From an uncultured Gammaproteobacteria bacterium (GTDB taxonomy: Bacteria > Patescibacteriota > Patescibacteriia > UBA9934), in the NCBI GenBank assembly GCA_964625515.1, contig CAZVBP010000002.1, forward strand, positions 1 to 25,536: a stretch of DNA of 25,536 nucleotides, given 5' to 3'. Below, one piece after another: positions 12,227 to 13,384 of this stretch. Under the pieces are notes generated by a model that saw nothing but the letters and a program-made list of their open reading frames with translations, did no database searches and was not told where the DNA came from. A program made the position numbers and the translations under genes. Numbering within the stretch: the first letter of the stretch is position 1; every line of letters begins with the position of its first letter.

Positions 12227-13384
12227 TCAGAACGTGCCGGTGAACAGTACCCCGTTCCCGGCGGGGGTGACGGTGACCGTTCGCTCGCGTACCTCGATGA
12301 TCGTCCATGTGGTGCCACCCACGAGCGCGGCGCCGCCGATACCGGTGAAGATGCCACCGATCACCGCATGCGTGCGCATGTGGCGGACGCCGGCGTTGAG
12401 CTCGGCATCGGTTGCGTCGATGGTCCCATCGTTCACACCCGCGATCCAGCTCCGATCGCTCGAGGCAATTCCGAGGTTGATGCCGCCGCCCACCACCGTG
12501 GTGAGCAGCCCCGCTCCCGCCACCCAGCAGCCCGCGGGAACGGGCTTGCGCACGTTCGGGTCCGTGAGCGGGATGGCCGGCGGGATGAACGGCGCCGGTG
12601 CGGGCTCGATGAGCGGCCCGCCGGGGAGCACGAGTCGGGCACGGTTCCCGTTCCACTCGTCTCCGGGCAGGAGGCCCATCGACGTGTAGATGTTGAGGTC
12701 CGTTCCCGCCAGCTTCTGCTTGATGCCCAGGTAGTAGAGGCCTTCGAGGGTGATGGGTCCGCCTCCTGCGCTCTCGATCACGCTCGCTGCGGCGCCGAGA
12801 AGGCCTCCACCCGCCGTTGTTCCCGGCGGACCGGTCGAGATGGCGAGGGCATCGCCACCACCAAGCTTCACCACATCGTCTCCCGTGACACCGAGGCCAT
12901 CACGGCTCGCGTCGATCAGCCAGATCGCGCCCGTGGTCAGGGAGCGGATGCCGATCACGAGATCGACAAACGGCAGGCCGCCATCGATCTCGCTGTTCCG
13001 AGTGTGCAGGACTTCTTCATCGACGTCGCCGCCTTCTCCTTCGCAGGCGAGGCCGACGATGGTGAGCCGGTAGCGGCCCGACCCCATCTCGGCGGGCAGC
13101 GTGCTGGTGAACCAGTTCCGGACCTCGTTCGCCGTCGGCTCCCAGATCGTCACGAGCGTGTCGATGTCGGACCGCGGCATGAGCGACCGGTACAGTTCCA
13201 GGGCCTCTGCCTCGTACTCCGTGCCACACGTGAGGATCACGGCCATGGTGGAGACTTCCGGCGCGTTGGCGGACATGCGAATCGTGGTGATGCCGTTCTG
13301 CGGCGCCGGGGTGGCGGGGGAGGTGGTGAAGGGGTCCGCCGCGAGGGCGACGGAAGTGGAGAGCAAAAGGGCGATGGGGGACAT
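12227..13384 (-). CDS. Secreted caspase-fold (peptidase C14-like) pseudo-protease with a hydrophobic hairpin and C-terminal beta-strand (385 aa)
   Basis: Signal peptide. Ordered caspase-like motifs EPTANEVRNWF, IVGLACEG (in place of SGHG), WLIDASR (in place of LDACR), AISTGPPG, GPITLEGLY. Pro-rich linker. C-terminus TVTVTPAGNGVLFTGTF. SD GGAG lies 5 nt before the ATG. Confidence 0.7.
   Translation of the reverse strand: MSPIALLLSTSVALAADPFTTSPATPAPQNGITTIRMSANAPEVSTMAVILTCGTEYEAEALELYRSLMPRSDIDTLVTIWEPTANEVRNWFTSTLPAEMGSGRYRLTIVGLACEGEGGDVDEEVLHTRNSEIDGGLPFVDLVIGIRSLTTGAIWLIDASRDGLGVTGDDVVKLGGGDALAISTGPPGTTAGGGLLGAAASVIESAGGGPITLEGLYYLGIKQKLAGTDLNIYTSMGLLPGDEWNGNRARLVLPGGPLIEPAPAPFIPPAIPLTDPNVRKPVPAGCWVAGAGLLTTVVGGGINLGIASSDRSWIAGVNDGTIDATDAELNAGVRHMRTHAVIGGIFTGIGGAALVGGTTWTIIEVRERTVTVTPAGNGVLFTGTF

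Follow-up and report, generated by a model that had tools for sequence, protein, structure and literature searches.

What role is left to a caspase-like protein once both residues of its catalytic dyad have been replaced, and how does such a protein come to end in a C-terminal module that abounds in genomes placed in the Myxococcota? Both questions are raised by a gene on the minus strand of a 25,536-nucleotide stretch of Patescibacteriota DNA (contig CAZVBP010000002.1, positions 1 to 25,536; this whole stretch is referred to as the window), whose product is a 385-residue protein designated P0001. A first reading made from the letters of the DNA alone (the sequence-only reading) had described this product as a secreted, inactive caspase-like binding or decoy protein of myxobacterial origin. 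The comparisons of structure, family, and gene neighborhood brought together here favor, at a probability of about 0.6, a lineage-specific cell-surface protein of the candidate phyla radiation (CPR), in which an exported pseudo-caspase would act as a non-catalytic binding domain tethered to the membrane by the C-terminal module.

The ORF list and its translation give P0001 and a stop codon as the product of the minus-strand open reading frame (ORF) 12227-13384. An exhaustive phmmer search of 1.84 billion representative sequences recovered 18 full-length relatives at 28-87% identity, one of them a protein named as coming from a Patescibacteria metagenome-assembled genome (MAG), and an orthologue is present in 12 of the 13 genomes of the same genus, all of them about 0.6-1.1 Mb in size. 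These relatives and this distribution show the minus-strand ORF to be a real gene; it occurs as a single copy in the 877-kb genome to which the window belongs. A 422-residue open frame on the plus strand (12179-13447) spans the whole of it, and the presence of long ORFs on both strands might suggest that the minus frame is spurious in a GC-rich stretch and that the plus frame is the gene. The chance of this is negligible, however, as homologues and a confident fold exist only for the minus-strand product, its G+C content at third codon positions (GC3) of 0.84 is typical of a true frame, and overlapping ORFs in other frames or on the opposite strand of relatives have GC3 near 0.5-0.6. That more than 20 genomes conserve the minus-strand protein already refutes this possibility, and the 422-residue frame, for which no homologues of its own were found, is a shadow ORF produced by the GC3-rich coding frame.

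The fold of the N-terminal half was approached from several directions. An AlphaFold2 (AF2) model built from a five-sequence input has a predicted local distance difference test score (pLDDT) of 75-89 across residues 30-160, with strands (46-52, 76-81, 105-113, 150-158, 179-184, and 230-240) alternating with helices in a way that fits an alpha/beta/alpha sandwich around a six-stranded, mostly parallel sheet. All 50 of the 50 best Foldseek matches in the PDB are caspases, metacaspases, or the MALT1 paracaspase (best E 3.5e-4). In VIA-align, which is independent of Foldseek and covered 48,161 chains, the top 21 chains all belong to clan CD (Z 12.4-9.4; 170-190 aligned residues; root mean square deviation (rmsd) 3.1-4.7), including caspase-8 at Z 12.4 and an rmsd of 3.4 over 176 residues; the list also takes in legumain, GPI8, a CHAT domain, and the pseudo-caspases c-FLIP and Raptor. 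A search of AlphaFold Database (AFDB) clusters returned caspase-family proteins at E about 1e-5 over residues 30-240 of the query, and in ESM-Atlas feature space 92 of the 100 clusters nearest to residues 25-260 are Peptidase_C14 (score 0.92), the nearest of these coming from Pseudomonadota, Bacteroidota, and phages. The sequence-only reading had seen caspase-fold motifs in their expected order and had proposed a comparison with clan CD structures. All of these methods agree on clan CD, and residues ~30-255 are predicted to adopt a caspase fold, an assignment that is well supported for a predicted structure.

Profile databases give no hint of this relationship. PF00656 matches neither the 385-residue protein nor anything else in the genome, Pfam, NCBIfam, and PDB sequence searches with the whole protein returned no match even at E <= 10, and a profile of the 21-member family found nothing relevant in a sequence search of PDB chains. 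Likewise, phmmer against the same 1.84 billion representatives detected no sequence relatives of the caspase-like half outside its own CPR family.

To map the fate of the catalytic residues, canonical C14 domains were taken from other Patescibacteria (five) and from the large genome G068 (one); all six carry SGHG or AGHG together with DACR, DTCR, DSCH, or DSCL (read as IDACR, LDTCR, and LDSCH). Canonical Peptidase_C14 domains with an intact His/Cys dyad are themselves rare in Patescibacteria, occurring in 5 of 301 genomes (L030-L034 among them). Alignment of the family N-domain profile with the six domains by hhalign is co-linear and local, extends over 100 columns, and is weak (P 0.0099); its register places the family motif (S/A)-C-P-A on S-G-H-G and D-A-S-R on D-x-C-(R/H), and hmmsearch against the G068 C14 domain reproduces that register at 9.3 bits. 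In P0001 the two motifs read A113-C114-E115-G116 and D158-A159-S160-R161, with the His of SGHG mapping to residue 115 and the Cys of DxC to S160. Both positions follow directly on strands of the model (105-113 and 150-158), and the clan CD dyad lies on the loops after strands 3 and 4 (PMC4357240).

Conservation within the family sharpens this picture. Position 115 is Pro in 13 of the 21 members, Glu in 2 (including this protein), and some other residue in 6; position 160 is Ser in all 21, and a His-rich column is found nowhere in the 21-member family. Distant copies from sister genera have DAGQ, DDSP, or DAST in place of DASR. The sequence-only reading had thus located both substitutions correctly, and S160 is invariant, as is D158, but the Glu at position 115 to which it drew attention is not a conserved trait. 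As modeled, the caspase-like domain is shown to have lost both catalytic residues and so cannot be a clan CD cysteine protease.

The loops around the former active site have nevertheless been kept. Conserved stretches lining that side of the domain are GGDxDEE after strand 3, Asp158, GPTADD, and AIS(S/T); column by column, G119, D120, D158, G165, T167, S183, and K/R222 are present in all 21 members, E124 and D170 in 20, C53 in 19, and C114 and D122 in 17. D158 is the Asp retained two residues before the catalytic Cys position (DxC). Its equivalent in TbMCA2 is the S1-pocket residue Asp211, which helps to hold basic P1 residues in metacaspases, and conservation of this pocket Asp has also been described for pseudo-orthocaspases (PMC6426788).

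Invariance of this kind raises the question of whether the domain has exchanged one chemistry for another. It might be a hydrolase or transpeptidase in which Ser160 serves as nucleophile with K222, D120, or C114 as partner, perhaps processing neighboring surface or pilus proteins. Consistent with such an enzyme, Ser160 and K/R222 are invariant and C114 nearly so, the gene is conserved beside a surface-appendage operon, and the structural matches include transamidases and ligases of clan CD (GPI8 and OaAEP1). The family has no conserved His, however, position 222 is Arg, a poor general base, in three members, and distant copies have Gly at the Ser position (DAGQ); moreover, replacement of Cys by Ser together with loss of the His is the pattern of the presumed inactive pseudo-orthocaspases (PMC6426788). 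A catalytic role is for these reasons distinctly unlikely. The Pam pilus preprint makes no mention of a caspase-like or protease component, and a search of the literature on CPR/Patescibacteria metacaspases and on the PEGA domain in Myxococcota found nothing relevant.

The other half of the question concerns the C-terminal module. Modeled by AF2 from a 36-sequence alignment (pLDDT 85.8), it comprises two antiparallel helices (284-318 and 326-366) followed by a beta-hairpin (370-383), and the protein ends V-T-V-T-P-A-G-N-G-V-L-F-T-G-T-F. Confidence peaks in the polar tip of the helical hairpin (residues ~301-341; pLDDT 95-98), a stretch that the family members conserve well. Every element listed by the sequence-only reading is present: a Pro-rich linker, two hydrophobic helices rich in Gly, and a last strand that closes with G-T-F. 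Against the PDB, Foldseek matched the module to nothing more specific than helical hairpins of a generic kind (ATP synthase c and EsxB, for example; E > 1). Neither Pfam nor NCBIfam has a model that matches it (residues 255-385 of P0001 and nine module-bearing proteins), and curated models for MYXO-CTERM, PEP-CTERM, LPXTG, and similar sorting signals or for glycine-zipper families likewise find no match. Prediction of a four-copy complex scored 0.00 with a partner pLDDT of 39, which speaks neither for nor against oligomerization.

How the module sits in a membrane, and in which membrane, bears directly on function. The last residue is Phe, Trp, or Tyr in 33 of 36 aligned modules and the end of P0001 combines its terminal aromatic with alternating hydrophobic residues (V-L-F-T-G-T-F), both as in an outer-membrane beta-signal, to which the sequence-only reading had likened it. 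The resemblance is real as far as the conserved aromatic end goes. The organism appears to have nothing to read such a signal, because no Omp85 protein (PF01103; BamA included) was found in the window's genome (86% complete) by a search that detected seven diderm controls. That result and the small CPR genome bear out the premise of a CPR monoderm. Charge is distributed unusually: family averages are +2.5 for the flank before helix 1 and -2.4 for the hairpin tip, with a slightly acidic tail after helix 2, and relatives of the module in Myxococcota that have canonical signal peptides share the pattern. It may mean that the positive-inside rule is broken, that the hairpin is not a classical inner-membrane anchor, or that the module inserts from outside into another membrane. 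Most likely it is anchored in the cell's own cytoplasmic membrane, in a topology that remains putative.

Export is probable on account of an N-terminal signal peptide. Residues A13, A15, A16, D17, and P18 are invariant in the family alignment, and in those aligned relatives (P0002-P0021) whose N-termini resemble signal peptides, the stretch preceding the hydrophobic core contains neither Lys nor Arg. Such residues do occur there in the window's other secreted proteins (starts at 1462, 2339, 3177, and 5672).

Outside the family, phmmer located the module at the end of short proteins encoded at high GC, whose N-termini are of the TPR or PEGA type (E 1.6e-5 to 8.7e-4 for a search of all 1.84 billion sequences), and AFDB matches are again C-termini of TPR and PEGA proteins. 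G068, a 9.3-Mb MAG, has 22-28 copies, nearly all behind TPR repeats, and the module was found in all 41 genomes searched of the order to which G068 belongs (4.3-15 Mb), with 1-48 copies each at E <= 1e-5, these counts being lower bounds as 109 candidates were scored per genome. The clusters nearest to the module in the ESM Atlas are labeled Myxococcota by both features and shape (TM 0.55-0.70). The impression that this style of C-terminus is abundant in Myxococcota thus proved accurate for the order that the Atlas places there. Its pairing there with a C14 domain, also asserted at first, did not appear: at 31 loci around the best C14 matches of that order, no ORF matched the module profile (best E 0.27), in a test that reached 1.5 kb downstream of each C14 match, so that very long proteins would escape it, and whose controls scored 1e-13 to 1e-25, one control sequence being from outside the training set. 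In these genomes the module rides instead on TPR or PEGA proteins. From these searches the module is an uncatalogued domain, without a model in Pfam or NCBIfam and very common in genomes inferred to be Myxococcota.

Among Patescibacteria the module is rare, occurring in 5 of 301 genomes. Three other CPR families carry it on different, unrelated N-domains (L035:205-1920, plus strand; L036:1489-2604, minus; L037:838-1884, plus), two of which have no Pfam match and one a TPR/PEGA-like layout; each of these genes has a GC content above that of its flanks, one of them in a context of 34-38% GC. In a genome of a sister genus (G043), the module stands alone behind an N-terminus resembling a signal peptide, the two making up a whole protein of 147 residues (L043:719-1159, plus strand; hmmsearch E 6.9e-13), encoded by a gene with a GC3 of 0.90 in a locus of 52% GC. 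At one locus of G068 (L015:5919-8750), an ECF (extracytoplasmic function) sigma gene is followed by a Ser/Thr kinase gene, at whose stop codon the module-bearing TPR gene P0022 begins. This single linkage hints at a signaling role for the module in Myxococcota.

A signaling role can also be imagined for the protein of the window, with the pseudo-caspase as an extracytoplasmic ligand sensor and the acidic tip of the hairpin relaying its occupancy across the membrane to a cytoplasmic partner such as a Ser/Thr kinase. Besides the P0022 arrangement and the confidence and conservation of the tip, such a sensor would be in keeping with the presence in the window, at a distance of 4 kb, of a Ser/Thr kinase gene that is likewise GC3-rich, and with a solved transmembrane anti-sigma factor, DdvA (8rot), whose extracytoplasmic caspase-fold domain is among the structural matches (Z 8.6). 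The kinase gene does not adjoin the pseudo-caspase gene in the window or its syntenic relatives, however, the kinase linkage comes from one Myxococcota-type locus only, and the protein, in its putative topology, has no cytoplasmic domain beyond about 30 residues. Sensing is therefore an unlikely account of it.

More economical is a tethered binding protein, and this is the sense in which the description of an inactive caspase-like binding protein has held up: with the dyad lost, non-catalytic binding is the simplest role to assign from the sequence. It is favored because the dyad is gone and the loops around it are strictly conserved, in a protein that is apparently exported, tethered, fast-evolving, and encoded beside surface-appendage genes. 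An atypical signal peptide would export the caspase-fold domain, which a Pro-rich stalk would join to the C-terminal module. The module would form a long alpha-helical hairpin whose Gly/Ala-rich base lies in the cell's own cytoplasmic membrane, followed by the short beta-hairpin ending in Phe. What binds in the old acidic substrate groove would plausibly be a cation or a basic stretch of peptide, and at the cell surface the whole might serve as a receptor, an adhesin, or a scaffold held by its tether.

Several observations weigh against this interpretation. Sequence likeness to canonical C14 domains is weak (hhalign P 0.01; hmmsearch 9.3 bits), and the mapping of the catalytic positions depends on a predicted model together with these weak alignments. 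The invariant Ser160 and K/R222 leave room for an unconventional catalytic role. Further complicating the proposed topology, the hydrophobic segments 286-307 and 339-362 are borderline for membrane spanning (1.3-1.56 in a 19-residue window), and the charge pattern opposes the positive-inside rule for an exported N-domain with a cytoplasmic tip. Finally, the n-region of the signal peptide is atypical in having no Lys or Arg, unlike the basic n-regions of other secreted proteins of the window.

The coordinates of the features discussed are collected in Table 1.

Table 1. Features of the pseudo-caspase gene and its flanks, in window positions
Feature	Residues	Positions	Strand	Basis or remarks
Coding sequence		12227..13384	-	ORF list, translation; homologues at 28-87% identity; present in 12/13 genus genomes
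GGAG Shine-Dalgarno-like motif, ~7 nt 5' of the ATG		13391..13394	-	Upstream 30 nt read directly
Probable signal peptide	1-17	13334..13384	-	Kyte-Doolittle peak at residues 10-13; conserved A-x-A-A-D-P end
Predicted caspase-fold (clan CD-like) pseudo-enzyme domain	~30-250	12635..13297	-	AF2, Foldseek PDB, AFDB clusters, VIA-align, ESM-Atlas features
Loop L3 region (A-C-E-G...G-G-D-V-D-E-E)	113-124	13013..13048	-	Catalytic His position lost; acidic GGDxDEE conserved
Loop L4 motif D-A-S-R-D	158-162	12899..12913	-	Catalytic Cys replaced by invariant Ser160; Asp158 of DxC kept
Pro-rich linker ending in basic cluster	254-285	12530..12625	-	Read directly from sequence
Module helix 1: Gly/Ala-rich hydrophobic 286-307, then polar extension	286-318	12431..12529	-	AF2, hydropathy
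Module helix 2: polar, then Gly-rich hydrophobic 339-362, ending in conserved G-G-x-T-W	326-366	12287..12409	-	Alignment, AF2
Terminal beta-hairpin, V-x-V-x-P-x-G-x-G-x-x-x-x-G-x-F	370-385	12230..12277	-	AF2 strands 370-375 and 378-383
3' intergenic spacer, 214 nt		12013..12226	-	Two hairpins: one GC-rich, directly following the pseudo-caspase stop codon, the second a long one

The neighborhood of the gene is informative about its history. On one side it converges with a gene for a 776-residue TPR membrane protein (9682-12012) that forms the end of a surface-protein operon, and this surface-appendage operon is a conserved neighbor; on the other side it diverges from ychF (13505-14599). The order ychF, pseudo-caspase gene, 777-residue TPR protein, and 1533-residue fiber protein recurs in two metagenome contigs just as in the window, and divergent copies of the same architecture adjoin ychF in other genera of the same CPR family, one of them, in L042, reading through an antisense ychF-like stretch. 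The spacer between the convergent genes is predicted to fold at -83 kcal/mol (z -8.3 versus shuffles), and a consensus scan found no T-tract terminator in it.

Composition might at first sight suggest an import, with the GC3 of 0.84 standing above values of 0.50-0.59 in core neighbors. The ten orthologues examined have GC3 of 0.62-0.84 and ychF 0.42-0.59, and because all ten share the excess, high GC3 here reads as a stable, native property of a gene class and not as a sign of recent import. A class of GC3-rich genes (0.69-0.84) with Shine-Dalgarno-like leaders can be recognized in the window at 12227-13384, 15010-15528, 17462-19207, and 22392-23207, all on the minus strand, among core genes whose GC3 is 0.45-0.59; core neighbors such as ychF have no such motif. 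The excess is common to the Ser/Thr kinase gene and the genes at 15010-15528 and 22392-23207. The excess may stem from biased gene conversion, or from a codon style that surface and signaling genes have in common.

Taken with the conserved place beside ychF, the presence in 12 of 13 genus genomes, and the divergent copies in sister genera, the shared GC3 argues for vertical descent: by sequence and synteny the gene is an old, vertically inherited, fast-evolving, GC3-rich gene of its lineage and not a recent import. Pairwise dN/dS values are 0.5-0.7, with dS near saturation and constrained by the GC3 bias. In a quick maximum-likelihood tree of the module (36 rows, 123 columns), all pseudo-caspase modules group together (SH-aLRT 95) and stand apart from the Myxococcota-like and other CPR modules, which form a poorly resolved mixture. 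Most deep branches are unresolved and no donor clade appears, so that the tree identifies no donor and no direction of transfer. Myxococcota and CPR may have exchanged the module long ago, in either direction.

The myxobacterial connection drawn by the sequence-only reading has to be judged against this background. On this view the gene, or its C-terminal half, came from Myxococcota and, as CPR cells have no outer membrane of their own, the module would lodge in a myxobacterial host's envelope, where the protein would act on the host as a decoy or adhesin. Several observations are in harmony with such a host: the module is massively expanded in all 41 genomes (4-15 Mb) of an order labeled Myxococcota by the ESM Atlas, reaching 48 copies, and is rare in CPR (5 of 301 genomes); with its basic flanks and acidic tip it is easier to reconcile with insertion from outside than with an ordinary topology in the inner membrane; the G068 domain scores best of the six canonical C14 domains against the family profile; and the organism is found in wastewater and sludge. 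Yet habitat sharing says nothing specific about a host (the metagenomes that hold the organism are from wastewater, sludge, and freshwater), the gene is a syntenic core gene with deep divergence within the CPR family, its GC3 richness is common to orthologues and other native genes, and three other CPR families have the module attached to N-domains of no relation to this one, in one case at 34-38% GC. No protein combining C14 and module turned up among the 31 C14 loci of the Myxococcota-like order, and the family is its own branch in a module tree that has no donor clade.

A myxobacterial origin is consequently not supported, as the caspase half has no relatives outside the CPR family either. 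The expectation that the closest homologues would be Myxococcota failed in the same way, full-length relatives belonging to the protein's own CPR family and feature-space neighbors to Pseudomonadota, Bacteroidota, and phages; for the chain leading from the module through targeting of a host envelope to a Myxococcota host, no evidence was found. Overall, such a myxobacterial source and host are very improbable. Just as doubtful is the related proposal that the module is an undescribed membrane-insertion domain that was passed between Myxococcota and several CPR lineages and inserts from outside into a partner's envelope, its basic flanks staying on the near side and its acidic tip crossing over. 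If insertion from outside were nevertheless true, the dead caspase would serve in contact with the host, and the module would record at the molecular level that CPR and Myxococcota are associated.

Under the favored interpretation, that of a pseudo-caspase tethered to the cell's own membrane, the family would be a conserved, fast-evolving surface protein of one CPR lineage that has gone unrecognized by profile databases. For an obligate episymbiont, a pseudo-protease on the cell surface is a candidate means of recognizing the host or of modulating its proteases. Definition of the module is perhaps the more useful by-product, as it is present in every genome searched of the Myxococcota-like order (1-48 copies) and sporadic in CPR, and a domain so abundant without a family model merits a family definition. 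High GC3 in these CPR genomes should not be taken as evidence of recent horizontal transfer.

Comparison with known systems illustrates how far the protein has departed from its relatives. With canonical Peptidase C14 (PF00656; TbMCA2, 4af8, and Yca1, 4f6p) it shares the fold (Z 10.7-11.2), the order of motifs, the local motif IDASR in place of IDACR, and the acidic loop after strand 3; it differs in having neither the catalytic His nor the catalytic Cys and no significant profile match. The protease-like domain of c-FLIP(L) (3h13, Z 11.2) and the N-terminal domain of Raptor (5wbi, Z 9.4) are likewise caspase folds without catalytic residues and show, for eukaryotic pseudo-caspases, that the fold can serve as a binding or scaffold domain, but they are cytosolic eukaryotic proteins with no detectable sequence relation and no membrane module. 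DdvA of Myxococcus xanthus (8rot, CHAT domain) offers a bacterial parallel in being membrane-bound with a caspase-fold domain (Z 8.6), although its N-terminal anti-sigma domain and single-pass architecture set it apart, and it has no sequence relation to the CPR protein and no module.

The module itself finds its counterpart in the C-terminal module of Myxococcota TPR/PEGA proteins (P0022, P0026, P0028, and paralogues in G068). Both have a Pro-rich linker, a Gly/Ala-rich helix, a polar turn of 25-33 residues, a Gly-rich helix ending G-G-x-x-W, and a short beta-hairpin with an aromatic end, and the TM to Atlas models is 0.55-0.70. The Myxococcota versions differ in being attached to TPR/PEGA domains; Arg residues often cluster behind their helix 2, and the turn sometimes contains a pair of Cys. 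The CPR module is attached to a pseudo-caspase in an organism without a detected outer membrane.

The closest parallel to the caspase-like half is found in the pseudo-orthocaspases, a class that is recognized by the C14 profile, has mostly Tyr-Ser or Tyr-Asn in place of the dyad, and has been reported mainly from Cyanobacteria and Alphaproteobacteria (Klemencic, Asplund-Samuelsson, Dolinar & Funk 2019, PMC6426788). Common to both are a prokaryotic p20-type caspase fold, a replaced dyad with Ser at the Cys position, retention of the preceding Asp, and a presumed non-catalytic binding role. In contrast to that class, the proteins described here have no PF00656 match, show Pro or Glu where Tyr commonly replaces the His, and are confined to a single CPR family; in them the caspase-like domain is also combined with a signal peptide and, at the C-terminus, a membrane module. 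The family is best read as a new CPR variant of the pseudo-orthocaspases.

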